NCBI GenBank assembly: GCA_045128275.1
Contig: JBGVRH010000046.1
Location: forward strand, 51,178-115,177
DNA from: Eubacteriales bacterium
Lineage (GTDB): Bacteria > Bacillota > Clostridia > Oscillospirales > CAG-272
DNA: 64,000 nucleotides
Direction of reading: 5' to 3'
Below, piece by piece: positions 21,420 through 64,000 of this stretch. Made by a program: the position numbers and the translations under genes. Each line of letters begins with the position of its first letter. The first letter of the stretch is position 1. The notes under the pieces are model-generated. The model searched no databases. It saw nothing but the letters and a program-made list of their open reading frames with translations, and had not been told where the DNA came from.

Positions 21420-21565
21420 TTCAAATTTGGGTTTGTCGAATAGATACAAGATACGGAGATACAAGATACAAGATATAGAACGGCTGTTGCCACAAGGTTA
21501 TTTCATATCTTGTATCTTTGTATCTTGTATCTTTGTATCTTTGTTTCTCACCGACAAAACGCAAT

Positions 21566-21567
<2 letters not shown>
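21420..21567. mobile_element. TIR-bounded long-hairpin element, (GATACAA)n stem type
   Basis: Ends are TTCAAATTTGGGTTTGTCG and CCGACAAAACGCAATTT. Arms are (GATACAA)n and (TTGTATC)n around a 28-nt loop. The right end overlaps the Clp ATPase stop codon. Confidence 0.6.
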
Positions 21568-27601: not shown

Positions 27602-27817
27602 GCGATTTTGACCCATAAAATGGCACTTTTTCGGCATTTTAAGCGGTTTTTGAGCCAAAAAAACGATATTTGAAATCAAAACACCTCAATTTGATTTGGG
27701 ACAAATGATGATTTTGAGCAAAGATCGAAACTCTAATTTACAGCTGTATAATCACGGACGGATATTTCAAATGCAAATCTCCGTGTATTGAGGAATTGTC
27801 TAATAAAAGCAAGAGGG

Positions 27818-29032
27818 ATGGTGGTTGTTGTGACTAATCAAGAAAAGGGCTTGGAGTTTGAAAAGCGGTGCTTTTCAAAGCTAGTGGATCTAAATTTTAC
27901 GGATTTATCTTTGACACGAAATACCGATAATGGTGCAGATATTATTGGAACATTAAATGGAACTAGGTATGTTTTCCAATGCAAAAACCATAAAAAGCCT
28001 CAGGGAAATAGATGTGTTCAAGAGGTGATTGCTGCGCAAAAGTTATATAAAGGTAATAGGTGTGTTGTTATTTCACATAGTTCGTTTACTTCTGCGGCAA
28101 TTGCTTTGGCTAAAGCTAATAACTGTATTCTTATTAAAGCAAATGTTTTTTTTGAGTTGTCTGATTTTCCTCCAAAAGATTACTCTGCGCAATTTGATCA
28201 AAACACTCCAGTGTATGATTTTGAATATCAACTAATTGAAAAATATGAAGAAATAAAGAAGAGGTTAGGGAGAACTCCTAAGTGGGAGGAACTTGATGCA
28301 CATACCCGTTATGTAATAACGAAGAAGTATAAAAATTATAGCATATTTTTGTCTTCAATAGGCGATAAAAAATGTACGGCTAAGCATTCAGACGATGAAC
28401 TTAAAAAAGAATATATGCGTATAAGAGAACTTTTGAACAGAGTTCCCACAGGTGCCGACATCCGCGCTTATAGTTCATTCCCATATAACCAGTTTCATGA
28501 GTATCCGTTAACCAAACTGCAAAAAGAATGTGGAGATCGACCTAATATAGAACGTGGGGTATCGAAGGAAGCATTAACACATTCATATTTTGAATTGGAG
28601 AAAAAACTAGGCCATCCTCCCGCTGTTAAAGAAATTGATCAATTTGGAACATATAGGTCGTCATATTATGTTCGCAGGTGGGGGAGTATAGACAACTTCC
28701 TGCTAGAAATTGGCAGAACGAGGACTTCTGCTGGATTACCTAGACGTTATACCAATGATGAGGTAATTGCAATATATTCACTTATAAAGATATTGCTATC
28801 TTTGGTAAAAGAGAGTGATAATTATGAAATCAATCAAACCGTTCTAGAACAACTTCAGTTTAATAGTGGAACGCTCATTTCGCCAGCTACCTTTTCAAAC
28901 AAATTTGGTGATTGGAAAGCTTTTTGCACATATTTAGAAGAAAACAATATTAACAATGAATTATTAAAAATCGTGAGGCGAATTCGTTGCGAAGGAATAC
29001 AAGTTCTGTTTACGGATACAGTACCGTCATAA
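27818..29032 (+). CDS. Mrr-like restriction endonuclease domain protein with HEAR-type repeats
   Basis: 404 aa, low GC. The N-terminus (...DNGADIIGTLNGTRYVFQCKNHKKPQGNRCVQEV) resembles the Mrr_cat D..(E/Q)xK core. It is followed by three ~45-aa helical repeats (..LGRTPKWEELD.., ..LNRVPTGADIR.., ..LGHPPAVKEID..). Confidence 0.65.
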   Translation: MVVVVTNQEKGLEFEKRCFSKLVDLNFTDLSLTRNTDNGADIIGTLNGTRYVFQCKNHKKPQGNRCVQEVIAAQKLYKGNRCVVISHSSFTSAAIALAKANNCILIKANVFFELSDFPPKDYSAQFDQNTPVYDFEYQLIEKYEEIKKRLGRTPKWEELDAHTRYVITKKYKNYSIFLSSIGDKKCTAKHSDDELKKEYMRIRELLNRVPTGADIRAYSSFPYNQFHEYPLTKLQKECGDRPNIERGVSKEALTHSYFELEKKLGHPPAVKEIDQFGTYRSSYYVRRWGSIDNFLLEIGRTRTSAGLPRRYTNDEVIAIYSLIKILLSLVKESDNYEINQTVLEQLQFNSGTLISPATFSNKFGDWKAFCTYLEENNINNELLKIVRRIRCEGIQVLFTDTVPS

Positions 29033-29473
29033 GATTTAAATGGTAAAAGCGAGACAATAAATTTTATTGAAAATTTCATGTCGGAATGGATAAACTATGG
29101 CTCATTTCAAAAGGTTGGACAAAATGGCGTTTTAATTCAAGGTCATAATAATTGAAACTATCTACGATATGTTTCCAAGCACCGTTCATAAATCAGGGAC
29201 AAATGTGATTTTCTACCTATGATTTTGAGACTTTTTGGAGTTTCCACCCCCGTTTTTGCCCGTTTTTTATACCTTTTGGAGTCTTGACCCATGTGGAGAA
29301 TGTCGTGTGCTTAAAACTCATACAGAATAATTCTCGCGAAAATATCCAGTAGTGGTAAAATCACCACCACATTTTCAGGAGAAATGAAACCCAAAATGCC
29401 GCGGCTTAAATGGTTTGAGCATAACGATAAAGTGAATAGAAAGTGAATAGAAAATGTAAAGGAGTTCTCAACC

Positions 29474-30799
29474 ATGTCCCCCTTTATCATAGCCATCATC
29501 CTCTTCGCCATCACCTACGTCCTTCTCTTCACCCTGCCCAAGGCGCGCTCCTACATAGCCCTTTGCTCGGCGGTGATCTTCTCGGTGTGGCTGACCTTCT
29601 TCTGCGCTGACATCGAGTTCGGTCTCGGTACCATCGTGGGTGCCATCGACTTCAATATCCTCATGATGATCGCGGGCACCATGGGCATCGTGACCCTGTT
29701 CATCGAGTCCAAAATGCCCATGCGGATCGCTGACGTGATGCTGTCCAAGTTCAAGAACGTCAAGATGGCCATTGTGGCCATGGCGGTGCTTTCGGGCGTG
29801 GTGTCGGCCTTCGTGGACAACGTGGCCACGGTCTTGATGATCGCCCCCATCGCTCTGGCGGTGTGCAAGAAGCAGAATATGTCCCCCGTCCCCGCCATCA
29901 TCTCCATCGCGGTCTCCTCCAACCTGCAGGGCGCGGCCACGCTGGTGGGCGACACCACCTCCATCCTGCTGGGCGGTTACGCCGGCATGAACTTCTTCGA
30001 CTTCTTCTGGTTCCTCGGCCGTCCCGGTATCTTTTGGGCGGTGGAGCTGGGCGCGGCGCTGACTGTGGTGATCCTCCTGTTCCTCTTCCGCAAGGAGACC
30101 AATCCTCTGACCCTCACCGACAAGACCGAGGTCACAGACTACGTTCCCTCCTACCTCATGGTGGGTGTTGTGGTGGCGCTGATCCTGGCCTCCTTCATCC
30201 CCCAGCCCGCGGGCGGCGCGCTTTTGACTCTATACGAGCTTCGCAACGGTATCATCTGCATGGTGCTTTTGTTGGTGGGCATCGTGATCAATCTCTGCCG
30301 TACCAGGAGCTTTGAGTCCACCAAGGGTGTGTTCAAGGAGATGGACTACCAGACCCTGCTCCTGCTGGCTTCCCTCTTCGTGGTCATTCAGGGCATCACC
30401 TCGGCGGGGGTTATCGACAAGCTGGCCGAGCTTCTGGTGAGCCTCGGCGGCGGCAATCTGTTCCTCATGTACACCGTCATCGTCTTCGCCTCGGTGCTGA
30501 TCTCGGCGGTGGTGGACAACATCCCCTACGTGCTGACCATGCTCCCCGTGGTGACGGGGGTGGCCCAGGCCATGGGGGTGGAGCCTTACGTCCTGTACTT
30601 CGGCCTCTTCGTGGGCGCGACCCTGGGCGGCAACATCACCCCCATCGGTGCCAGCGCGAACATCACGGGTATCGGTATTCTCCGCAAGGAGGGGCATGAG
30701 GTCAGAGCGAAGGACTTCATGAAGATCAGCGTGCCGTTTACGCTGACGGCGGTGCTTTCGGGGTATTTGTTTATTTGGGTTTTCTGGGGGCTTTTGTGA
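29474..30799 (+). CDS. ArsB/NhaD/CitMHS-superfamily permease
   Basis: 441-aa polytopic protein with internal duplication, typical of ion-transporter superfamily permeases. Confidence 0.7.
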   Translation: MSPFIIAIILFAITYVLLFTLPKARSYIALCSAVIFSVWLTFFCADIEFGLGTIVGAIDFNILMMIAGTMGIVTLFIESKMPMRIADVMLSKFKNVKMAIVAMAVLSGVVSAFVDNVATVLMIAPIALAVCKKQNMSPVPAIISIAVSSNLQGAATLVGDTTSILLGGYAGMNFFDFFWFLGRPGIFWAVELGAALTVVILLFLFRKETNPLTLTDKTEVTDYVPSYLMVGVVVALILASFIPQPAGGALLTLYELRNGIICMVLLLVGIVINLCRTRSFESTKGVFKEMDYQTLLLLASLFVVIQGITSAGVIDKLAELLVSLGGGNLFLMYTVIVFASVLISAVVDNIPYVLTMLPVVTGVAQAMGVEPYVLYFGLFVGATLGGNITPIGASANITGIGILRKEGHEVRAKDFMKISVPFTLTAVLSGYLFIWVFWGLL

Positions 30800-30802
30800 T
30801 CA

Positions 30803-30889
30803 CGCCCGCAGGGCATATCTCGCCCGAAGGGCATATCGTGCCAAACGGGCATATCTCGCCCAAAGGGCATCTCGCGCGCCGTTAGGCGC
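30803..30889. repeat. array of ~18-nt mini-hairpin units (orientation A)
   Basis: CGCCCGCAGGGCATATCT / CGCCCGAAGGGCATATCG / TGCCAAACGGGCATATCT / CGCCCAAAGGGCATCT... Starts 3 nt after the permease stop. It is the reverse complement of 31302-31372. Confidence 0.9.
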
Positions 30890-30919
30890 TCCATTCCATG
30901 ATTTCAAGGAGAACCTACC

Positions 30920-31294
30920 ATGGACAAGATCACCATACGCGAGTTATCCATAGATTTGACAGTTGACATTACGAAGGTTTGCGATCCACTCAGAGGCCGC
31001 AGTATCTTCATCAACCAGCTTCTCCGTGCCTGTTCCTCTATCGGCGCGAACGCCAGTGAAGCCAGATACGCGCAGAGCAACGCTGACTTTATCAATAAGC
31101 TTGAAATCGCGCTGAAGGAGTGCAACGAGACCGATTATTGGTTGGAAATACTGGTAAAGACAAACTCCATCAGTCAAGACGATTATCGCAGATTGTGCAG
31201 TAAATGCAGTCACATCAAGCGAAAGCTGATCGCGTCTATCACAACTGTTAAGAACAAAACAAATTCACAGTTCCCTACAGAACCGCAACCTTAA
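30920..31294 (+). CDS. four-helix-bundle protein (23S rRNA intervening-sequence protein / Avd family)
   Basis: 124 aa, QLLRACSSIGANASEARYAQSNADFINKLEIALKECNETDYWLEIL matches the family signature as remembered. Lower GC than flanks. Confidence 0.8.
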   Translation: MDKITIRELSIDLTVDITKVCDPLRGRSIFINQLLRACSSIGANASEARYAQSNADFINKLEIALKECNETDYWLEILVKTNSISQDDYRRLCSKCSHIKRKLIASITTVKNKTNSQFPTEPQP

Positions 31295-31301
31295 AGTAAT
31301 T

Positions 31302-31372
31302 GCGATATGCCCTTCGGGCACGATATGCCTACGGCGCGATATGCCCGTTGGGCGCGATATGCCCTTCGGGCG
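31302..31372. repeat. array of ~18-nt mini-hairpin units (orientation B)
   Basis: GATATGCCCTTCGGGCAC / GATATGCCTACGGCGC / GATATGCCCGTTGGGCGC / GATATGCCCTTCGGGCG. Starts 7 nt after the four-helix ORF stop. Confidence 0.9.
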
Positions 31373-31387
31373 TGAAAGGAGTCTCCC

Positions 31388-32211
31388 ATGAACGTCATCC
31401 ACACAACCCTCGAGATCGGCGCCACCGCGCCCTTCAGGATCATCCACCTCTCCGACACCCATCTGACCTACGCCGATCTCCGCGACGGCCAGCGCAAGGT
31501 GGATCTCATTGATTGGCGGCTTCCCTCCTTCCCCAACGCTGAAAAGGTGCTGGCCGAGGCGGGGGAGCTGTCCCGTGAGCTGAACGCCCCCATCTTCCAC
31601 ACGGGGGATCTCATCGACTACGTATCCCTGGCCAATCTGGAGGCGGTGAAGGCCTTCACCGACACCCACGACGTGTACATGGCCACGGGCAACCATGAGT
31701 TCTCCCTCTACGTAGGGGAGGCCAAGGAGGACGCGGCTTACCGCAACCAAAGTCTGCCCGCGGTGCAGGCCTGCTTTGGGAACAACATCCGCATGGATTC
31801 CCGTGTGGTGAACGGGGTCAATTTCGTCGCGCTGGACAACGGATACTACCTCTTTGAGCCCGAGCAGTTCGAGTTCCTCAAGGGAGAGGTGGCCAAAGGG
31901 CTGCCCATCGTGCTGATGATGCACACGCCCCTGTACGATCCCAAGTTCTACGAGCGCATGATGAGCTACTGCCCCTGCGCCTACCTTATGGGCGTGCCCG
32001 AGGAGCTGATGGTGGGCTAACCCCCGACCGCTACATCCAGCAGAAGGCGGACGAGGTCACGCTGAAGATGATGGAGTACATCGCAAAGGAGCCGCTCATC
32101 AAGTACATTCTGACGGGGCATCAGCATTTTGATTTCGAGAGCGTGTACGCCGAGAGAGTGCCCCAGATCGTGACGGGGATCGAGACGGCGAGGGTGATCG
32201 AGTTCGTGTAA
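31388..32211 (+). pseudogene. metallophosphoesterase, frameshifted
   Basis: The 210-aa ORF stops at TAA 32018-32020. The reading continues stop-free in the -1 frame to TAA 32209-32211 and carries the missing GHxH motif (ILTGHQHFD). The break lies next to a C5 run at 32021-32025. Confidence 0.7.
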
Positions 32212-34153: not shown

Positions 34154-34166
34154 TAAATAATGAAAA

Positions 34167-34238
34167 CGATATGCCCTTCGGGCGCGAGATGCCCGTTGGG
34201 CGCGAGATGCCCGTTGGGCGCGGTATGCCCTGCGGGCG
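34167..34238. repeat. array of 18-nt mini-hairpin units (orientation B)
   Basis: GATATGCCCTTCGGGCGC / GAGATGCCCGTTGGGCGC / GAGATGCCCGTTGGGCGC / GGTATGCCCTGCGGGCG. Starts 13 nt after the upstream stop. Confidence 0.9.
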
Positions 34239-34256
34239 TAATAGAAAGGATAGAAT

Positions 34257-39470: not shown

Positions 39471-40265
39471 ATGAAACGAACACTCTTAACTATTGATTCC
39501 AATCTTTTCCCTACCGAGTACCGCCCCCTGCTGACAGGCGCGCCCGTCTACGACAGCTCCTGCTCCCCTGCGGCGAGGGTGTACTACATCGACCGCGACG
39601 GGGGGTACTACCTCAAGACCCAGCCCGTGGCCAAGGGGTCTCTGCGCCTTGAGGCCGAGAAGGGCCGCTTCTTCTTTGAGAAGGGCTTGGGCGCGGAGGT
39701 GCTTTCCTACACCACCGTGGGGGAGTCCGATTGGCTTCTGACCCGCCGTGTGGTGGGGGAGGACTGCACCCATGCCGAGTATCTGGCACAACCCGAGCGG
39801 CTGGTGGAGCTGTGGGCGGAGATCCTGCGTCGACTCCACGATCTGCCCATTGAGGGCTGTCCCGCGCCCGATTATCTGGGCAAATATCTGGCCTTGGCGG
39901 AGGAGAACTACCGCACGGGCAACTATGACAAGAGCCAATTCCCCGACAGCTTCGGGTACACCTGTGCCGAGGAGGCGTGGGGGGTTCTGTCCGAGGGCAA
40001 GCACCTTTTGAAGGCCGACACCCTCATCCACGGGGACTACTGTCTCCCCAACGTCCTGCTGGACGGGTGGAGATTCTCGGGGTTCATCGACCTTGGGAAC
40101 AGCGGTGTGGCGGATCGACACATCGACCTGTTCTGGGGTGCGTGGACGCTGGGGTTCAATCTGCACACCGATGCCTACCGTGGGCGGTTCTTCGATGCCT
40201 ACGGGCGGGATAAGGTGGACGAGGACTTGATCCGCGTGGTGGCGGCGGCGGAAGTGTTTGGGTGA
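39471..40265 (+). CDS. aminoglycoside phosphotransferase family (APH(3')-like) kinase
   Basis: 264 aa with catalytic loop HGDYCLPNVLL and IDLGNSGVADRHIDL. Confidence 0.8.
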   Translation: MKRTLLTIDSNLFPTEYRPLLTGAPVYDSSCSPAARVYYIDRDGGYYLKTQPVAKGSLRLEAEKGRFFFEKGLGAEVLSYTTVGESDWLLTRRVVGEDCTHAEYLAQPERLVELWAEILRRLHDLPIEGCPAPDYLGKYLALAEENYRTGNYDKSQFPDSFGYTCAEEAWGVLSEGKHLLKADTLIHGDYCLPNVLLDGWRFSGFIDLGNSGVADRHIDLFWGAWTLGFNLHTDAYRGRFFDAYGRDKVDEDLIRVVAAAEVFG

Positions 40266-40296
40266 ATGCGAAATGCAAAATGCAAAATGCAAAATC
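40266..40296. repeat. heptamer tandem repeat (ATGCAAA)n
   Basis: atgcgaa atgcaaa atgcaaa atgcaaa, beginning at the nucleotide after the APH stop codon. Confidence 0.85.
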
Positions 40297-41345: not shown

Positions 41346-42299
41346 ATGACCAACTGGAAACAAATCACCCTCACCACCCCTCGCCTCATCCTGCGCCCGT
41401 GGGTGGAGACCGACGCCGAGGCCTTGTACCGCTTTGCCCGTGACCCTCTGGTGGGGCCGCCCGCGGGCTGGCCGCCTCACACGTCGGTGGAGAACAGCCG
41501 CGAGATCATCCGCACTGTCCTTGCGGCGCGGGAGACCTATGCCATGGTGTTGCGCTACGATACAACCGACTCGCTCAGCGGGGAGGTCATCTCTGCGGGG
41601 ACACCCGTGGGGAGCGTGGGCATCATGTTCAAGGGCTGCGGCTCTTACCCGCACATGGCGAACACCGAGGCCGAGATCGGCTACTGGGTGGCTCTGCCCC
41701 TCTGGGGGCGGGGACTGGTGCCCGAGGCGGTGAAGGCCTTGCAGGCGCGGTGCTTTACCGACTTGAAGCTGGACGGTCTGTGGTGCGGGTACTACGAGGG
41801 GAACGAAAAATCCCGACGGGTACAGGAAAAATGTGGTTTTACGCCGCGGTGCGACATGGAGATCCCGCCCCATCCCTTAAACGGGGCGACGAAGGAATAT
41901 TTCACCTACCTGTCCCGCGAGGCGTGGGAGGTCATGCAAGAGCCTGTGACCCATGAAATGAGCCTGCGGGAGGCCCCCTATCGCGCGGTGGCCTCGGGGC
42001 GCAAGGTGATCGAGATGCGGTTATTTGACCCCAAGCGGCAGATATTGCAGGCGGGGGATGAGATCCGCTTCACCCTTGTGGGAGGAGACGAATCCGTCAC
42101 CGCCCTTGTGGTGGGGCTTCACTACTTCCCTTCCTTTGCCGAGTTGTATGAGGCCATGATCCCCCGCGTGGGGGCGGTGGGCCTGGGGTATGGCGAGGGG
42201 GAGGTGCCCCATCCCGACGATATGCTGGAGTATTATTCCGAGGATGCCATTGCCCGCTTCGGGGTGGTGGGGATCGAGATTGAAATTCGGAATTCGTAA
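41346..42299 (+). CDS. GNAT N-acetyltransferase (RimJ/RimL-like) fused to an ASCH domain
   Basis: 317 aa. N-terminus LTTPRLILRPWVETDAEALYRFARDP... is GNAT-like. The C-terminal ~110 aa (VIEMRLFDPKRQILQAGDEIRF...) is ASCH-like. Confidence 0.75.
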   Translation: MTNWKQITLTTPRLILRPWVETDAEALYRFARDPLVGPPAGWPPHTSVENSREIIRTVLAARETYAMVLRYDTTDSLSGEVISAGTPVGSVGIMFKGCGSYPHMANTEAEIGYWVALPLWGRGLVPEAVKALQARCFTDLKLDGLWCGYYEGNEKSRRVQEKCGFTPRCDMEIPPHPLNGATKEYFTYLSREAWEVMQEPVTHEMSLREAPYRAVASGRKVIEMRLFDPKRQILQAGDEIRFTLVGGDESVTALVVGLHYFPSFAELYEAMIPRVGAVGLGYGEGEVPHPDDMLEYYSEDAIARFGVVGIEIEIRNS

Positions 42300-42317
42300 T
42301 GCGTAATTCGTAATTGG
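42285..42317. repeat. heptamer tandem repeat (CGTAATK)n
   Basis: attcgga attcgta atgcgta attcgta att. Overlaps the last 4 codons and the TAA of the GNAT-ASCH gene. Confidence 0.85.
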
Positions 42318-42591: not shown

Positions 42592-44124
42592 ATGGACTAC
42601 GAACACATCCAATGCCACGGTGAGGGCTTGACTCTCCCTCGCGGCTTTGCCGAGCGGATGCGGAGCATGCTGGGGGATGACTTCCCCGCCTTCTGCGACT
42701 CCTACGCCAAGGACATCCACCCCTCCCTGCGGGTGAACACCCTGAAGCTGACTCCCGAGGGACTGCGGGAGATCGCGCCCTTCGTGGGGAGTGAGATCCC
42801 TTGGCAGAGAAACGGCTTTTACTACACCACCGACGGGGAGACCCGCCCCGGCAAGCACCCCCTCCACGAGGCGGGGGCGTACTACATCCAGGAGGCCAGC
42901 GCCATGCTTCCCGCCTCCCTGTGTCCCCCCAAGCCGGGCGAGCGGGTACTTGACCTCTGCGCCGCCCCCGGCGGTAAGGCTACTCAGCTGGCCGCCGCCC
43001 TGTGCGGTGAGGGGCTTTTGGTGGCCAACGAGATCCACCCCACCCGCGCGGGGATTTTGTCCCAGAACATGGAGCGCATGGGGGTACGGAACGCCGTAGT
43101 GACCAACGCCACCCCCGCCGAGCTTTCGGAAAAATTCCCCGCCTTCTTTGACAGGATCGTGGTGGACGCGCCCTGCTCGGGGGAGGGAATGTTCCGCAAG
43201 GAGGCGGATGCCGTGACCATGTGGAGTCCCGAGAACGTGGCTCTCTGCGCCGCGCGACAGGGTGAGATCCTGGAAGAGGCGGCGAAAATGCTCCGCGCGG
43301 GCGGGTACTTGGTCTACTCCACCTGCACCTTCGCCCCCGCCGAGAACGAGGGGGCGGTAATGAATTTCCTGTCCCGCCATCCCGAATTCGAGGTGGTTCG
43401 GTCTGCCGAAGACGCTGTTATAGAGTCCCGCGAAAGGGGACTTCTGGACGGCGGCAGACCCGAGTGGGAGGAGGAGTACGGTCAGTTCCCCGCAAGCATC
43501 GCGGATCAGGTGAAGGACACCTACCGCGTGTTCCCCCACCATTGCGACGGCGAGGGGCATTTCGCGGCACTCCTGCACAAGCGGGAGGAGGGTGGTGAAG
43601 TCCCCCTCTCCTCCAAGGAAGGCAAAAAGAAGAGCCGCAAGCCCGAAAAGCCAAGCGGCGGCAAGGGAAAGCCCGCGCCTGTGACCGTTGCGGTCAAGCT
43701 CCTTGAGGAGTTCTGCCGCGAGGTCATGGGGGGGATTCCTTCGTGGGTCGGGGAGACGGTTCCCTGCCTGTTCGGGGACAAGCTGTACCTGGTGCCCAAG
43801 GCTCTGTGCGGTGAAATCGACCCCACCGAAGCGTTGAAGGGTCTCCGCGTGCTGCGCGCGGGGCTCTGCGTGGGGACGGTGGTGGGTCTGGACAAGGGGC
43901 GCGGGCGGTTTGAGCCCGATCATGCCCTGGCGCTCTGCGCGGGGGCGGGAATCCGCACCCTTGCGGTGGACTATGACTCTGCGGTGGCTTACCTGCGGGG
44001 TGAGACGCTCCCCTGCGAATTACGGGGCTGGCATACCGTGAGCTACTGCGGGCTTCCCCTCGGCTGGGGCAAGGCCTCGGATGGGGTGATGAAGAATCAT
44101 TATCCCAAGGGGCTGCGGTGGTAA
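42592..44124 (+). CDS. rsmF: NOL1/NOP2/Sun-family rRNA cytosine-C5 methyltransferase (RsmF/RsmB-like)
   Basis: 510 aa from MDYEHI. SAM motif DLCAAPGGKATQLA, PCSGEGMFRK, STCTFAPAENE. Confidence 0.85.
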   Translation: MDYEHIQCHGEGLTLPRGFAERMRSMLGDDFPAFCDSYAKDIHPSLRVNTLKLTPEGLREIAPFVGSEIPWQRNGFYYTTDGETRPGKHPLHEAGAYYIQEASAMLPASLCPPKPGERVLDLCAAPGGKATQLAAALCGEGLLVANEIHPTRAGILSQNMERMGVRNAVVTNATPAELSEKFPAFFDRIVVDAPCSGEGMFRKEADAVTMWSPENVALCAARQGEILEEAAKMLRAGGYLVYSTCTFAPAENEGAVMNFLSRHPEFEVVRSAEDAVIESRERGLLDGGRPEWEEEYGQFPASIADQVKDTYRVFPHHCDGEGHFAALLHKREEGGEVPLSSKEGKKKSRKPEKPSGGKGKPAPVTVAVKLLEEFCREVMGGIPSWVGETVPCLFGDKLYLVPKALCGEIDPTEALKGLRVLRAGLCVGTVVGLDKGRGRFEPDHALALCAGAGIRTLAVDYDSAVAYLRGETLPCELRGWHTVSYCGLPLGWGKASDGVMKNHYPKGLRW

Positions 44125-44435
44125 ATTGCAGTTTATCGGTCTCCGACCGACAAACTGCAAGTGAAGCGCTCCCGCTGGTCGCATGAAGAGCGGCAGAGCC
44201 GCATGAAGCGCTCCCGTTGGTCGCATGAAGTACGCCATTCGGGCGCGATAAGGTGCAGATCCTTCGGATCTGTCCATTTAAAATAAAATTGAAACCCGAA
44301 GGGTTTCTTCCTTCATGCGGCAAAGCCGCGCTTCATTCACGCGTAGCGTGAACTTCACGCTCGCTTGCGAGCACTTCATGCGCCTTAGGCGCACTTCATT
44401 TGGGTTTATCGCAGAGCGATAAACCCAAATTTGAA
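44123..44435. mobile_element. composite hairpin-ended element with 28-nt conserved core
   Basis: Q hairpin AAATTGCAGTTTATCGG..CCGACAAACTGCAA, arms of ~20-nt mini-hairpin units, core GGTGCAGATCCTTCGGATCTGTCCATTT (44252-44279), and P hairpin ..TTTGGGTTTATCGCAGAGCGATAAACCCAAATTTGAA. Overlaps the rsmF TAA. Confidence 0.6.
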
Positions 44436-47458: not shown

Positions 47459-47597
47459 TTCAAATTTGGGTTTATCGAAGAGATACAAGATACGGAGATA
47501 CAAGATACAAGATATGGAACGGATTATGCCGTAACGTTTTTTCATATCTTGTATCTTTGTATCTTGTAACTTGTATCTCGCAGAAAAACTGCAATTT
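47459..47597. mobile_element. TIR-bounded long-hairpin element, (GATACAA)n stem type
   Basis: Ends are TTCAAATTTGGGTTTATCG and CGCAGAAAAACTGCAATTT. The left arm GATACAAGATACGGAGATACAAGATACAAGATAT is identical to the copy at 21420. Confidence 0.6.
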
Positions 47598-47630
47598 GAA
47601 AGTAAACAAGAAACGAATCTAATGCCCCGA

Positions 47631-49316: not shown

Positions 49317-49529
49317 TTCAAATTTGGGTTTATCGCAGAGCGATAAACCCAAATTTGAAGTGAAAAGTGAAGAGTGAAAAGTGAAGAGTGGAGGTGCAGA
49401 TCCTTCGGATCTGTCCATTTTTGATCAAAAAGAAGGAAACCGAAGGTTTCCCTCCTCACCTCTTCACTATTCACTATTACTTATTACTTCAATTGCGGTT
49501 TTCGGTCGCAGACCGATAAACTGCAATTT
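49317..49529. mobile_element. composite hairpin-ended element with 28-nt conserved core, (GTGAAGA)n stem type
   Basis: Perfect 18-bp P hairpin CAAATTTGGGTTTATCGC-aga-GCGATAAACCCAAATTTG, GTGAARA arms, core identical to 44252-44279 at 49393-49420, and Q hairpin AATTGCGGTTTTCGGTC-gca-GACCGATAAACTGCAATT. Confidence 0.6.
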
Positions 49530-49732
49530 AAATAATTTCCTCCCCGAATATGAACAATAAATAATTTTGTAAAAATTCTTCAATACCTATGGAAATTTTC
49601 TCAAAAGTATGATATAATGAGTAGAAAACTATACTCGGATACCAGTATCATCTGAAAAAGTATCGAGTTTTACCATATTCTGTCAGCTTCTTGGTTTCGC
49701 TGACCCTACTTTTGAAAGGATTCCCCGTATTT

Positions 49733-54142: not shown

Positions 54143-54373
54143 AATGCGTAATTCGTAATGCGTAATTCGTAATGCGTAATTGCGGAAGCCCTTCGCCAAA
54201 GCGAAAGCCGATCTCATGGCAGTTCATGAGAGCTTTATGGTTGGAAAACATACCGTCCCCCAAGGAAATCGTTGCAAATGGGGATGGATGAAATTTCCCT
54301 ACCATGCAATCATATCTTTCCAAAGGCAAAATGCTCCATTCATTACGAATTGCGAATTACGAATTGCGAATTA
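54143..54373. repeat. inverted (CGTAATK)n heptamer arms around a ~160-nt unique centre
   Basis: Left arm aatgcgtaattcgtaatgcgtaattcgtaatgcgtaatt (54143-54181). Right arm cattacgaattgcgaattacgaattgcgaatta (54341-54373). Starts 3 nt after the lysA stop. Confidence 0.8.
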
Positions 54374-60524: not shown

Positions 60525-60583
60525 TTGACAGGGACGCATCTATATGATATAATGGCATTATCGAGACAATCGGTAATGCCATT
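60525..60583 (+). promoter_or_regulatory. sigma-A promoter overlapped by a 10-bp inverted repeat
   Basis: TTGACA (60525-30), 17-nt spacer, TATAAT (60548-53). AATGGCATTA-N13-TAATGCCATT (60551-60583) is followed by ATTTTTT. Duplicated at 63033-63091. Confidence 0.6.
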
Positions 60584-60604
60584 ATTTTTTGAAAGGAATC
60601 TACC

Positions 60605-63019
60605 ATGAAGCACACCGCTCTGCGTTTTCTGATCGCTTCCCTGCTCATCCTCGTCATGGCTCTGCCCCTGTTCGCCTGCGACAAGGGGAATACCCCCGAC
60701 GAGACCACCCTGCCTGCCGACACCACGGACACGCCTGCCGAGACCCCCACCGAACAGCCTACCGAGACCCCTACGGAGGAGCCCACGGAGGAGGTCACCG
60801 AGCCCGAGGCGCCTCTGCCCACCGAGATCACCCTCCCTGAGGCATACACGACCGCCGACATCGTCTACGAGTGTGAAGACGGCTCCGTGGTCTACTCCTA
60901 TAACGGCAAGACCGCCAAGGACTTTGAGGCGGTGACGGCCCACTATACGAGTGGAGGCTACAAGCAGTACAGCTCCATCATCCAGGGCGAGAATCCCGCC
61001 GCCACCTTCGTAGGCGACGGTCCCATGGCTCATATCTACTGGATCAAGGCCACGGGAGAGCTGAGCATCGCCATCTCGGCCGACGCTGCCCACACCCTGC
61101 CTCCCATGACCCCCGCCGCCACCGACGGCGAGTACGAATGCAACGTGGCGCAGATGAAGGATACCCAGAACTTCATCGGCATGGGCTACGTCATTCAGCT
61201 GAAGGACGGCTCCTTCATCGTCTACGACGGCTCCTACGCCAACCAGACCTCCACCATCGTCCGTTACATCACGAACGCATGGAAGGGTGAGGGCAAGCCC
61301 ACCGTCCGCGCGTGGGTGCTGACTCATTCCCACAACGATCACTACCCCGCCTTTGAGGAATTCGCCAACAACAAGCGCTTCCGCGATCAGATCACGGTGG
61401 AGCACGTCATCGTCTCCCCTCTGAACGACGAGAGGTTCGCTCTCAACGATGTGGAGGAGTTCTACCTCAGCACCAAGTTCTGGGACGATGTGAAGAATCT
61501 GGAGGGTGCCAAGGTGGTCTTCGCCCACACGGGCATGAACTTCACCTTCTGTAATCTGGATATGGAGATCCTCTACACCCCCGAGAACGGCTACAAGACC
61601 GCCACCTCGGTGGGCAACTTCAACAACACCAGTATCGTCTCCCGCCTGTACGCCGAGGGCTACTCGGCTATGTTTACGGGTGACGTCAGCAACGTGGGCG
61701 TGGATTTCCTCATGAACGCCTACGGGGACTACCTGAAGAGCGATATGTGTCAGGTCTCCCACCACGGTGTGGAGGGTGAGTACATCCTGCCCTTCTACGA
61801 CACCGTCAAGGCTCCCATCCTCTTCTACCCCGCCTCCCTCGCGCTGTACGATATGACCGAGGCCGCCTACAGCCCCAAGGTGCATATCGCCCTGGAGAAG
61901 CGGGACTACGTCAAGGAGATCCTCATCCACCAGATCAGCCAGTTCACCCGCGCGTGGGGCACCACCTTCCCTGCCGACGCTACGCTGAATATGCACGGCT
62001 ACAACCCTCCCGAGATCCGCTATGAGGGACAAAACGATATCCCCGAGTCCGACCGTCTGACCGTGAACAAGAGGGTCTTCAAGGTGGGTGAACCCATCAT
62101 GATCACCGCTGTCGGTGACGGCTACGACTGGGTGGGTATCTTCGACAAGCCCAACACCATCAGCGGCGCGTACCGTTGGTGGAGACTCCACGACAACGAC
62201 GACGAGGACTACCCCGTTGCCCCCGCAGGCACGCCCTTCGACGCGCTGACACAGCCCGCCGACAGAACCAACGGTGAGATCCCCGCCGGCACGTGGTACA
62301 TCGTCCTCATCGACGAGGACAACGGCGCCGTAGGCGTGGGCTCCGTGACCATCGCCATCGTTGAGGATATCCCCGTGGCCGATCCGCTGGCTCCCTCCAT
62401 CCACGTGACCTTCGACGGCGCCGCCGAGGACGCCTGCGGAAACACCACCGTCAAGACCCACGGCAACGCCGTCTACGAGGAGGGCGTCAAGGGGCAGGGC
62501 GCTGTGGTCGGCACCGACTACTTCTCCATCCTCGGCTACGATCCCGATAACAAGAGCTTCACCATCTCGGTCTGGGCCAAGGTGAAGAGCATCACGGGTG
62601 ATCCCGCTCTCTTCGCCACCAAGGAATGGGCCAGCGGCTCTTACAAGGGATTTGCGCTGGGCATCGACGGCACGAGCAACCTCCATGCCAACATCGGTGA
62701 CGGCTCTCACCGCGTGGACATTAAGCCCGACCTGCCCTCCGGTGTGCTGAACGAGTGGGTTCACTACACCCTCGTCGTGGATCGCATGGCAGGCGAGATG
62801 AAGGTCAGCATCAACTTCGGCGCGTTCAAGACCGTGTCCATCCCCGCCAATCTCATCAACGCTCCCTACGGCGGTGAGGGCGCGCTGTTCATCGGTCAGG
62901 ACGCCACGGGCAACTACCAGCACGGCAAGATGACCGTCACGGTGGACGAGTTCATGGTATTTGACCACGCCCTGAATTCCGAGGATCTTTCCAAGCTGGC
63001 CGAAAGCTACGGGAAATAA
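60605..63019 (+). CDS. lipoprotein with metallo-beta-lactamase fold and C-terminal LamG/concanavalin-like domain
   Basis: 804 aa with lipobox LPLFAC, a Thr/Pro/Glu linker, HxHxDH motif THSHNDH, later SHHG, and a C-terminal Laminin_G_3-like region (...FTISVWAKV...VDEFMVFDHALNSEDL). Confidence 0.7.
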   Translation: MKHTALRFLIASLLILVMALPLFACDKGNTPDETTLPADTTDTPAETPTEQPTETPTEEPTEEVTEPEAPLPTEITLPEAYTTADIVYECEDGSVVYSYNGKTAKDFEAVTAHYTSGGYKQYSSIIQGENPAATFVGDGPMAHIYWIKATGELSIAISADAAHTLPPMTPAATDGEYECNVAQMKDTQNFIGMGYVIQLKDGSFIVYDGSYANQTSTIVRYITNAWKGEGKPTVRAWVLTHSHNDHYPAFEEFANNKRFRDQITVEHVIVSPLNDERFALNDVEEFYLSTKFWDDVKNLEGAKVVFAHTGMNFTFCNLDMEILYTPENGYKTATSVGNFNNTSIVSRLYAEGYSAMFTGDVSNVGVDFLMNAYGDYLKSDMCQVSHHGVEGEYILPFYDTVKAPILFYPASLALYDMTEAAYSPKVHIALEKRDYVKEILIHQISQFTRAWGTTFPADATLNMHGYNPPEIRYEGQNDIPESDRLTVNKRVFKVGEPIMITAVGDGYDWVGIFDKPNTISGAYRWWRLHDNDDEDYPVAPAGTPFDALTQPADRTNGEIPAGTWYIVLIDEDNGAVGVGSVTIAIVEDIPVADPLAPSIHVTFDGAAEDACGNTTVKTHGNAVYEEGVKGQGAVVGTDYFSILGYDPDNKSFTISVWAKVKSITGDPALFATKEWASGSYKGFALGIDGTSNLHANIGDGSHRVDIKPDLPSGVLNEWVHYTLVVDRMAGEMKVSINFGAFKTVSIPANLINAPYGGEGALFIGQDATGNYQHGKMTVTVDEFMVFDHALNSEDLSKLAESYGK

Positions 63020-63032
63020 AAACTCATCCGTA

Positions 63033-63091
63033 TTGACAAGCACCCCATTCTATGATATAATGGCATTATCGAGATAATCGGTAATGCCATT
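63033..63091 (+). promoter_or_regulatory. duplicate promoter/palindrome
   Basis: TTGACA (63033-38), 17-nt spacer, TATAAT (63056-61). AATGGCATTA-N13-TAATGCCATT (63059-63091). Confidence 0.6.
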
Positions 63092-63113
63092 ATTTTTTGA
63101 AAGGAATCTGACC

Positions 63114-64000
63114 ATGAAGCACACCGCTCTGCGTTTTCTGATCGCGTCCCTGCTGATCCTCGCCATGGCTCTGCCCCTGTTCGCCTGTGACAAGGGGAAT
63201 GCCCCCGACGAGACCACCCTCCCCTCCGCTGACGGAAGCGAGACCCCCGCGCCCGACACCGAGGCTCCTACCGAGGCCGAGACCGAGGCGCCTCTGCCCA
63301 CCGAGGTGAGCCTGCCCGAGGCCTATCAAACCGCCGACATCGTCTATCCCTGCAATGACGGCTCCACCCTCTACACCTACGCGGGCAAGACCGCCGAGGA
63401 TTTCGCCGCGGTCTGCGCCCATTACAAGGGGCTGGGCTTCAAGGTCTACTCGGATACGGTCAAGGCCGAGAACACCGCCACCACCTTCGTGGGTGACGGC
63501 CCCATGGCTCATATCTATTGGCACAAGGCCAAGGGTGAGCTGAACATCGTCCTGTCCGACACCGCCGCCGCTACCCTGCCTCCCATGACCCCCGAGGTGA
63601 CCGACGGTGAGTACGAATGCACGGTCATGCAGATGAAGGACAGCACCAACGTCAACGGCATGTGCTACGTCATTCAGCTGAAGGACGGCTCCTACATCGT
63701 CTACGACGGCTCTTATGCCACCCAGGCCCGTAAGATGGTCACCTACATGGAAGAAAACTACAAGGGAGAGGGCAAGCCCACCGTCCGCGCTTGGGTATTG
63801 ACCCACTCCCACGGCGACCACTACCCCACCTTCCAGACGGTCACAAGACGGATGGATGATGCCATCAACGTGGAGTATATCGTGTATTCCCCTCTCCGCG
63901 AGGAGGACTACGAGATGAACGATGAAGAGATCTACTTCAGCACCGAGAAGTTCCAAAATGATGCCGCCGAGCTGGACGGCGCGAAGCTGGTCTACGCCCA
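63114..64000 (+). CDS. paralogous MBL-fold lipoprotein (partial, runs off the window)
   Basis: MKHTALRFLIASLLILAMALPLFAC... is nearly identical to the 60605 gene over the signal peptide, then diverges. THSHGDH motif. No stop before the window end. Confidence 0.7.
   Translation, partial: MKHTALRFLIASLLILAMALPLFACDKGNAPDETTLPSADGSETPAPDTEAPTEAETEAPLPTEVSLPEAYQTADIVYPCNDGSTLYTYAGKTAEDFAAVCAHYKGLGFKVYSDTVKAENTATTFVGDGPMAHIYWHKAKGELNIVLSDTAAATLPPMTPEVTDGEYECTVMQMKDSTNVNGMCYVIQLKDGSYIVYDGSYATQARKMVTYMEENYKGEGKPTVRAWVLTHSHGDHYPTFQTVTRRMDDAINVEYIVYSPLREEDYEMNDEEIYFSTEKFQNDAAELDGAKLVYA

Follow-up and report, generated by a model that had tools for sequence, protein, structure and literature searches.

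Crystal structures of PF05635 (S23p, 'four helix bundle protein'), a protein family of very large size, date from 2006–2007, yet we know of no function for it outside diversity-generating retroelements (DGRs), and the role of the open reading frames (ORFs) carried inside rRNA intervening sequences (IVSs) has been a question since the 1990s. Here we describe a gene of this family, together with the inverted arrays of short hairpins that lie on either side of it, in 64,000 nt of DNA from a Eubacteriales bacterium (GenBank assembly GCA_045128275.1, contig JBGVRH010000046.1, positions 51,178 to 115,177; hereafter the window, in whose numbering all positions are given unless another contig is named). 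Our analysis gives about an even chance to the reading that this locus belongs to a widespread two-part module, in which a stand-alone PF05635 four-helix-bundle (4HB) gene is paired with cognate repeat arrays as its nucleic-acid partner.

IVSs are bordered by complementary sequences and excised by RNase III, and some of them carry S23p ORFs; the S23p protein of Xanthomonas is a pentameric toroid (PMC4990558). A GxxRxxxSxxxNxxE motif has been noted for the PF05635/TIGR02436 four-helix-bundle family (PMC3936711), and the DGR protein Avd forms a pentamer that binds a dedicated 'Avd-binding RNA' element (bioRxiv 10.1101/2023.10.23.563531). Published papers also place PF05635 genes (as 23S_rRNA_IVP) within cas loci, which concerns the gene and not arrays. 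Gut-1 is an orphan RNA published in 2010 from 43 examples, found in human gut metagenomes only (PMC2864571); it was rated as certainly RNA on the strength of covariation, and no function or partner gene was given (Weinberg et al. 2010, PMC2864571). In the literature searched, we found no paper that connects Gut-1 with a gene, nor any that connects four-helix-bundle proteins with inverted repeats or repeat arrays at their flanks. The locus itself is a variation on known kinds, its arrays being a Gut-1 variant that falls below the Rfam threshold; the partnership between gene and arrays is likely an undescribed, family-wide feature.

A PF05635 gene between two inverted Gut-1-like arrays

A CitMHS permease gene precedes the cassette and a metallophosphoesterase gene follows it. 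The parts of the cassette, and a lone copy of the same motif further downstream, are as follows.

30790-30877, minus strand: upstream arm 'R', an inverted full copy of a four-hairpin, GCGAUAU-type Gut-1-like motif.
30875-30889, plus strand: small hairpin GCGCCGTTAGGCGC, placed after the R arm and before the ORF leader, paired in the predicted fold.
30906-30911, plus strand: ribosome-binding site (RBS) of the 4HB gene, AAGGAG, with 8 nt separating it from the ATG, in a loop part of the predicted structure.
30920-31294, plus strand: 4HB protein gene, 124 aa, of PF05635/TIGR02436 (the S23p / IVS-protein / Avd fold family).
31300-31385, plus strand: downstream arm 'F', a sense copy of the motif.
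34164-34251, plus strand: lone sense (F) copy without an ORF, ending just 5' of the RBS of a RumA/RlmD-type methyltransferase gene (ATG 34257).

Read as DNA, the upstream array (30799-30877) comprises four GCCCGAAGGGCATATC-type units at 18-nt spacing, the R arm being four GCCCNNNGGGCATATC units on the plus strand, and starts directly after the permease stop codon (30797-30799). The downstream array (31302-31375) comprises four GATATGCCCTTCGGGC-type units, and its 3' tail GUGAAAGGAG is the Shine-Dalgarno sequence (31376-31381) of the metallophosphoesterase gene (ATG 31388). The two arrays are reverse complements of one another, with best arms of 43 nt at 91%. A model-made annotation of the window from its letters alone (the first-pass annotation) had described this arrangement of two inverted arrays of about four 18-nt units, placed between the permease stop and the RBS of the next gene, and the sequence bears it out. 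The 16-nt unit has 12 matches in the window versus 0.87 expected by chance, including those of the third, lone array at 34168-34237, which is absent from the first-pass annotation.

The F arm consists of five linkers (GCGAUAU, ACGAUAU, GCGAUAU, GCGAUAU and GUGAAAG) and four hairpins with UNCG-type loops. Because the Rfam Gut-1 model (RF01706) scored this downstream array at 21.6 bits only, we trained a covariance model, R1, on 17 sense arrays from AT-rich relatives, none of them of the window lineage. R1 has exactly three matches in the 64 kb, at 31300-31385 on the plus strand (50.5 bits, E 2.4e-12), at 34164-34251 on the plus strand (47.7 bits, E 1.6e-11) and at 30790-30877 on the minus strand (41.0 bits, E 1.4e-9). 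Since it also matches canonical Gut-1 loci (47-55 bits), R1 ties the window arrays to Gut-1. Among relatives of the 4HB gene whose arrays have GTGAAAT linkers, the sense array is Rfam Gut-1 itself (57-89 bits versus the gathering score of 50, at 18 of the 20 loci tested), and the inverted array gives a weaker Gut-1 score on the opposite strand; inverted AUAUCAC arrays are in fact already visible in the flanks of the Gut-1 seed alignment. Judged from its sequence, each window array is one complete Gut-1-homologous copy, with five linkers (four of the GCGAUAU type and a terminal GUGAA) and four hairpins, and not a set of generic mini-hairpins as the first-pass annotation had it. The spacers between cores form hairpins far more often than shuffled spacers do and are mostly distinct in sequence; the hairpins of sense copies favour UNCG-type loops, and compensatory changes occur in 9 of the 17 consensus pairs.

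The minimum free energy fold of 30790-31385 (596 nt) closes a long stem around the ORF (-230 kcal/mol, z = -8.8), and this closing stem is present in the centroid fold as well. Cofolding the R and F arms yields -136 kcal/mol versus -47 and -35 kcal/mol for the single arms (-82 summed), so that the long stem with the ORF in its loop, which the first-pass annotation had suggested could form, is strongly favoured over local hairpins. The inverted arms are predicted to be able to close an imperfect stem of about 75 bp. The CGCCGTYAGGCG hairpin that follows the R arm also forms the centre of ORF-less R-F elements in a metagenome-assembled genome (MAG), RGIG4611, when the two are compared. The ORF has a GC content of 46% and a GC content at third codon positions (GC3) of 58%, versus 59.5-61% and 86-87% in the two neighbouring genes; the lower GC of the cassette had been noticed correctly. 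A consensus scan found no promoter or terminator inside the cassette on the plus strand.

No rRNA or tRNA gene was found in the window, the transfer-messenger RNA (tmRNA) gene at 2113-2480 being the only gene of this kind detected. No Y[AVILMCT]DD motif of reverse transcriptases occurs in open stretches of at least 150 aa in its six frames, and a whole-window repeat search gave no template/variable-repeat (TR/VR)-like pair near the cassette. These searches agree with what the first-pass annotation had said of the window, and on their basis a DGR remnant was rejected, as was, for the window, an rRNA-linked IVS. An array of clustered regularly interspaced short palindromic repeats (CRISPR) was rejected as well: there are four units only, the 'spacers' are palindromic and near-constant, and the arrays come in inverted pairs. 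No cas gene is present among the five neighbouring ORFs scanned against Pfam, the remaining window ORFs lying outside that scan. The closest matches among the species representatives scanned are MAGs of uncultured Clostridia/Oscillospiraceae from the guts of ruminants and other animals, at about 90% nucleotide identity.

The encoded protein is a four-helix bundle of the Avd fold

The assignment of the ORF to the IVS-protein/Avd fold family, proposed from the letters alone, is confirmed by profile searches (PF05635, 82.3 bits against a cut-off of 33.8; TIGR02436, 93 bits against a cut-off of 24). The AlphaFold2 model has a mean predicted confidence (pLDDT) of 90.3 and four helices (residues 6-21, 28-48, 54-80 and 86-116), and the best Foldseek matches to it are 2RLD (E 9e-7, template-modelling (TM) score 0.77-0.87), 2GSC (TM 0.8-0.88) and the Avd structures 4DWL and 8UB7. 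These solved homologues, namely BT_0352 (2RLD), Xcc0516 (2GSC) and the DGR protein Avd (4DWL, 8UB7), have five chains per deposit, and by analogy with them the window protein is most likely a homopentameric ring. The RxxxSxxxNxxE motif is present, with R36, S40, N44 and E47 invariant in the alignment of relatives and Q33 in place of the leading G.

The 4HB domain is the only one found, and the profile searches gave no recognisable nuclease, recombinase or transposase domain. PADLOC and PHROGs returned no match, for which reason an identity as a defence-system or phage gene was rejected. Searches gave thousands of matches to 4HB genes that stand alone, outside rRNA and DGRs, and the location of this one, to which the first-pass annotation had drawn attention, is unremarkable in itself. 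Within the window the gene is single: tblastn with six diverse 4HB queries found it alone, and the other heptamer-array palindromes of the window hold no relic 4HB gene.

Arrays with clade-specific heptamers accompany the gene

Relatives of the window 4HB protein were sampled at 80 metagenomic loci (designated below by L-numbers) and at further loci from named MAGs. Where the upstream flank was 250 nt or longer (69 4HB loci), arrays were called from core counts or R1 matches; about 63 of these loci have a sense as well as an inverted array, a near-universal association. Almost all close relatives (at least 56% identity) have four CGATAT and four ATATCG cores beside the ORF, with hairpin sequences between the cores that vary by locus. 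More distant clades display the same layout around another core (GTGAAAT, ATGAAAT or ATGAATT), and the core heptamer tracks the protein clusters (CGATAT, TGAAAT and TGAATT). At a single locus, L136, two 4HB paralogues (65% identity, with 1.2 kb between them) have modules of their own, one with GTGAAAT/ATTTCAC in all copies and the other with ATGAAAT/ATTTCAT in all copies; a third GTGAAAT module there, with a promoter-like site, precedes an unrelated, non-4HB ORF.

The order of the parts differs among loci. Most have both arrays upstream, as sense-inverted-ORF; the window, L001-L004, L027, L076-L079 and L083 have inverted-ORF-sense; and L064 and L066 have sense-inverted-ORF-sense, from which either of the other two arrangements can be derived, on this comparison, by loss of one sense copy. 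The first-pass annotation had proposed that other copies of the ORF be checked for bracketing by inverted arrays; most close relatives hold both arrays upstream, and by this refuting condition the stem with the ORF in its loop is only one of the arrangements that the module takes. The locus is fairly described by its phrase, an IVS-like cassette at an ordinary intergenic position, in that the cassette is absent at the orthologous site in relatives, present at another, and matched in design within operons of Bacteroides and Xanthomonadaceae, but bracketing is not the essence of the module. Taken as a whole, that earlier interpretation is partly supported.

The layout of L136 (contig ULUB01061131.1, 1-3352) resembles a cassette array: three tandem modules, each running terminator-sense array-inverted array-promoter, are separated by conserved segments of about 150 nt, each 4HB paralogue is followed by a small unknown gene, and the third module drives the unrelated ORF. 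Modules of the GTGAAAT and ATGAAAT clades (L092-L136) are usually situated 35-450 nt downstream of a tRNA gene in the same orientation, the tRNAs being of many identities, and the L099 module (2010-2836) lies downstream of a 5S rRNA gene and tRNA-Asn, the sole 5S case. Modules of the GCGATAT clade adjoin genes for RumA/RlmD-type 23S rRNA methyltransferases, which makes for a recurrent link to stable-RNA loci.

The same design in other phyla

Relatives of BT_0352 in Bacteroidaceae occur in two gene orders, araD|4HB|araA and aminotransferase|4HB|DAHP synthase. In Bacteroides they are bracketed by four to six AATTGAC heptamers upstream, running into the ATG, and by four TTGTCAA heptamers downstream; the arms are 31-37 nt long and 89-97% complementary, and the predicted fold of the cassette has a 31-bp closing stem. 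Relatives of Xcc0516 in Xanthomonas and Dyella occupy accB|4HB|accC and have four GGGAATC-type heptamers on one side and the mirror image of these on the other, an odd unit, GGGAGT, in Xanthomonas being mirrored in the opposite arm. No Rfam family matches the plain-heptamer arrays of Bacteroides and Xanthomonadaceae. As far as sequence layout goes, a gene with inverted heptamer arrays is a design that recurs around 4HB relatives in three bacterial phyla.

Turnover, copy number and selection

Presence and absence were compared among orthologous loci that share about 85-92% of their nucleotides. At the site before the phosphoesterase gene, the cassette is found in the window and in L027 (4HB proteins 92.7% identical), a lone sense array in L056, and an empty site in L001 and L003. 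Upstream of the RumA-type gene, a related species (L001-L004) has a full R-4HB-F cassette, the window, L019, L035 and L056 have a lone sense array, and L027 is empty. The presence of the cassette is shown by this comparison to be polymorphic at orthologous sites. No clear target-site duplication distinguishes filled from empty sites, and the flanking GTGA is ambiguous as such a duplication because the termini TCACGCCC...GGGCGTGA are themselves inverted. Elsewhere the module is syntenically stable, between accB and accC from Xanthomonas to Dyella, between araD and araA in Bacteroidaceae, and in the RumA/RlmD neighbourhood of at least 15 Clostridia loci.

A search of species-representative genomes for a DNA pattern of two units returned 51 loci, about 38 of them from the MAG Clostridia bacterium RGIG4611. 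This genome has copies on at least 38 contigs, mostly ORF-less inverted-centre-sense palindromes of about 170-240 nt, often at contig ends, which share outer terminal inverted repeats CAAATTTGGGTTTGTCG; about 200 kb of its sequence revealed no 4HB gene.

Between the window and L027, the 4HB ORF has a nonsynonymous divergence (dN) of 0.042 and a synonymous divergence (dS) of 0.92 (dN/dS about 0.05). Over the same comparison the F arm differs by two substitutions (about 97% identity over aligned positions) and the R arm is about 88-90% identical, with a proportion of synonymous differences (pS) of 0.53. This pattern of substitutions shows purifying selection on both ORF and arrays, strong on the ORF.

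The genes around the cassette encode the permease, the phosphoesterase, a DUF4304 protein and the methyltransferase. The segment 32223-34153, between the phosphoesterase gene and rumA, holds the DUF4304 gene and an unannotated membrane-protein gene in the window; in its place L001-L004 have a 4HB cassette, L027 and L035 have other small ORFs, and L056 has the membrane-protein gene only. Because its contents differ among these loci, we regard it as a variable cargo slot between two array sites. The metallophosphoesterase gene (31388-32211) is split in the window into a 210-aa and a 47-aa ORF by a 1-nt difference in a C-run near 32016, through pseudogenization or a homopolymer sequencing error, and has intact orthologues of 274-276 aa in L027 and L003.

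Other repeats and genes in the window

Two ORF-less palindromic elements (21423-21567 and 47462-47610), about 90% identical, each consist of an outer repeat AAATTTGGGTTTRTCG, five AGATACA units, a 28-nt loop, five TGTATCT units and the inverted outer repeat. Their AGATACA arrays (21442-21548 and 47481-47578) have the design of the 4HB-bracketing arrays of Bacteroides and Xanthomonas. At 54143-54373, AATGCGT/AATTCGT (2.5 units) and ATTACGA/ATTGCGA (2.3 units) are inverted about 160 nt apart without a long ORF; this element stops just before the RBS of the next gene and has no Rfam match at the gathering threshold. The segments 49320-49530 and 44123-44432 contain an outer palindrome cluster (AAATTTGGGTTTATCG...CGATAAACCCAAATTT), AAGTGAA arrays with TTCACTA on the opposite side, and a repeated 43-nt sequence, AGGTGCAGATCCTTCGGATCTGTCCATTT; the AAGTGAA inverted array of the former is at 49358-49489. 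The outer-repeat motif occurs 10 times in the window versus 0.5 expected. Several ORF-less window arrays are capped by CAAATTTGGGTTTRTCG, as are the ORF-less 18-nt elements of the related MAG.

A tandem array of eight AGTGAAG units (2486-2543) begins 5 bp past the 5' end of the minus-strand tmRNA gene (2113-2480), and comparable short arrays are found upstream of the permease gene (29429-29453) and at 40265-40295 and 42284-42315. An AT-rich island at 27788-29032 (GC 35% versus 58% for the window), about 450 nt upstream of the permease gene, encodes an Mrr-type restriction endonuclease domain fused to homing-endonuclease-associated repeats, with a weak PADLOC match to ZorD. Two tandem paralogous genes (60525-61353 and 63033-63832) each follow the same 77-nt promoter-like segment and hairpin (TTGACA...TATAAT...ATGGCATTATCGAGACAATCGGTAATGCCATTATTTTTT), possibly a leader or attenuator.

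Proposed mechanism and alternative explanations

Under the two-part reading, a pentameric 4HB protein would recognise the heptamers that stand in tandem in the transcribed sense array, as Avd does with the RNA element of its retroelement, one protomer perhaps facing each of the five linkers, and the inverted array would compete for the sense heptamers by base-pairing. A read-through permease-4HB-phosphoesterase transcript may fold into an imperfect duplex of about 75 bp with the 4HB message in its loop. By analogy with ORF-bearing 23S rRNA IVSs, which have the same design, this closing duplex would be a plausible RNase III substrate, and its cleavage would release the cassette from the polycistronic RNA. 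Binding of the protein would then tune cleavage, expression of the 4HB gene itself and exposure of the RBS of the next gene; that binding or cleavage could act on the next gene follows from the array tail, which carries its Shine-Dalgarno sequence. The ORF-less copies (34164-34251 and dozens in the related MAG) may be extra binding or processing sites, or non-autonomous derivatives. Given the hairpin covariation and UNCG loops, and the precedent of the Avd pentamer and its RNA, RNA appears a more likely ligand than DNA.

Several observations pull against this reading. The Rfam Gut-1 score of the F arm (E 0.67) is below the gathering score of 50, and the 4HB protein, with a pI of about 8.3-9, is only mildly basic. 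The number of full heptamers per array varies from four to six and is not always five. Most close relatives do not bracket the ORF with arrays, so that excision by a closing stem is not a general mechanism. Loci of the GTGAAAT clade have a good promoter-like site with -35 and -10 elements after the inverted array and before the ORF (TTGATA-17-TATTCT in L099), and a terminator directly upstream of the sense array; the arrays of this clade may be outside the 4HB mRNA and would be a better fit to a DNA operator or a separate small RNA (sRNA) than to a cis-acting leader. Finally, the covariation of heptamer and protein clade could reflect linked inheritance and concerted evolution within the module instead of recognition.

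A DNA-level role is one of the alternatives that we weighed. The arrays could be iteron- or operator-like sites on double-stranded DNA, through which a 4HB oligomer regulates its own gene and other array-preceded genes. Such a role would suit the inverted array that abuts the promoter-like site before the ORF in the GTGAAAT clade (L099, for example), the same array-plus-promoter module before the non-4HB ORF in L136, the period of the sense array (about 21 bp, or two helical turns), and the fact that inverted copies offer the same site on duplex DNA. We nevertheless consider it quite improbable, since compensatory changes in the spacers and UNCG-type loops on one strand indicate a single-stranded, RNA-level constraint, Gut-1 was rated certainly RNA (Weinberg 2010, PMC2864571), the window clade and Bacteroides have no room for a promoter between array and start codon, and periods of 18 bp in the window and 24-26 bp in inverted arrays are not helically phased. 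Mobility raises a different set of questions. The array pair could be a mobile DNA repeat akin to miniature inverted-repeat transposable elements (MITEs) or to paired repetitive extragenic palindromic (REP) sequences (REPINs), with the 4HB protein as a mobility or maintenance factor in a role like that of the REP-associated tyrosine transposases (RAYTs), the window cassette as the 'autonomous' form and ORF-less copies as non-autonomous derivatives spread among intergenic regions. Presence/absence at orthologous sites in genomes about 85-90% identical would be expected of such an element, as would the ORF-less R-centre-F palindromes with shared outer repeats on at least 38 contigs of RGIG4611, the GC3 of the ORF (58% versus 86-87% in its neighbours) and the occurrence of near-identical 4HB proteins mostly on contigs of about 1 kb. 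This explanation is unlikely in our view: nothing in the protein is recognisable as a nuclease, recombinase or transposase domain, PADLOC and PHROGs give no match to it, no clear target-site duplication is visible, many clades hold the module at one syntenic site over long divergence, and the roughly 200 kb of RGIG4611 show no 4HB gene.

A further alternative, already disfavoured and very unlikely, treats the arrays as ordinary host repeats of the REP or bacterial interspersed mosaic element (BIME) type, stabilising or terminating mRNAs, beside which the 4HB gene is found by chance or insertion preference and without functional partnership. The GC-rich lineage does have more lone arrays and ORF-less palindromes than ORF-bearing ones, and the window holds other ORF-less inverted heptamer arrays. 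Chance proximity is hard to reconcile, however, with arrays at about nine in ten 4HB loci across several clades and three phyla, with heptamers that are clade-specific and homogeneous within a module, and with array conservation far above that of synonymous sites.

The two-part reading has a broader form, which we put forward tentatively and regard as rather doubtful. Stand-alone PF05635 proteins would be sequence-specific readers of tandem heptamer arrays (a pentameric ring to about five heptamers), and, with their inverted arrays, would make up an ancient cassette common to the whole family, which inserts itself into transcribed regions and whose closing stem serves to neutralise or regulate it at the RNA level; ORF-bearing 23S IVSs, Gut-1, the scattered ORF-less palindromes and perhaps Avd with its spacer RNA would be specialisations of it. 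The locus ties together PF05635, Gut-1 (an orphan structured RNA since 2010) and rRNA-IVS ORFs. If the partnership of gene and arrays is real, it would define a new class of RNA- (or DNA-) binding ring protein with programmable heptamer specificity, explain the survival of small selfish cassettes in essential operons (accBC, araDA) and in rRNA, and provide an annotation rule for thousands of unexplained intergenic repeat arrays.

Comparison with known systems

With REP/BIME and REPIN/RAYT systems the locus shares short hairpin units, a conserved linker, inverted intergenic pairs, dozens of copies in some genomes (only three motif copies in the 64-kb window) and a single associated gene flanked by repeats. 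It differs from them in that the 4HB protein has no HUH/Y1 transposase motifs, although a transposase encoded elsewhere in the genome might act in trans, in that arrays have four or five units with strict heptamer linkers, and in that many modules are syntenically stable. Proteins of the TRAP type are oligomeric rings facing evenly spaced short repeats in a leader RNA, with a competing base-paired structure. The resemblance is one of analogy only and not of homology, and the match of five protomers to about five heptamers, like binding itself, is our conjecture.

The window arrays resemble Gut-1 in alternating heptamer linkers with short, variable, covarying hairpins, and Gut-1, like the window, belongs to gut Clostridia. 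The linker is GCGAUAU in the window and GUGAAAU in Gut-1, and Gut-1 was described as an orphan sRNA with no mention of an inverted second copy. Avd (PDB 4DWL, 8UB7) has the same four-helix-bundle fold (TM about 0.76-0.87) and is a pentameric barrel binding a structured RNA element encoded beside its own gene. Sequence identity to Avd is about 15%, however, the window lacks a reverse transcriptase and a template/variable repeat pair, and the RNA partner in DGRs is a single spacer element in place of tandem heptamer arrays.

The ORF-bearing IVSs of 23S rRNA in Leptospira, Coxiella and Brucella share several features with the window cassette: a protein of the same S23p/PF05635 family, an element of about 0.45-0.6 kb with complementary borders and a long stem with the ORF in the loop (PMC4990558; window fold), insertion in a transcribed region that tolerates RNA discontinuity, and sporadic occurrence among relatives. 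Unlike them, the cassette lies between protein-coding genes and not in helix 9, 25 or 45 of 23S rRNA, its arms are tandem repeat arrays with defined heptamer linkers, and its ORF is under strong purifying selection, whereas the Coxiella IVS ORF is decaying. RNase III excision without religation has been shown for IVSs, and by analogy the window cassette would be a candidate substrate for the same reaction.

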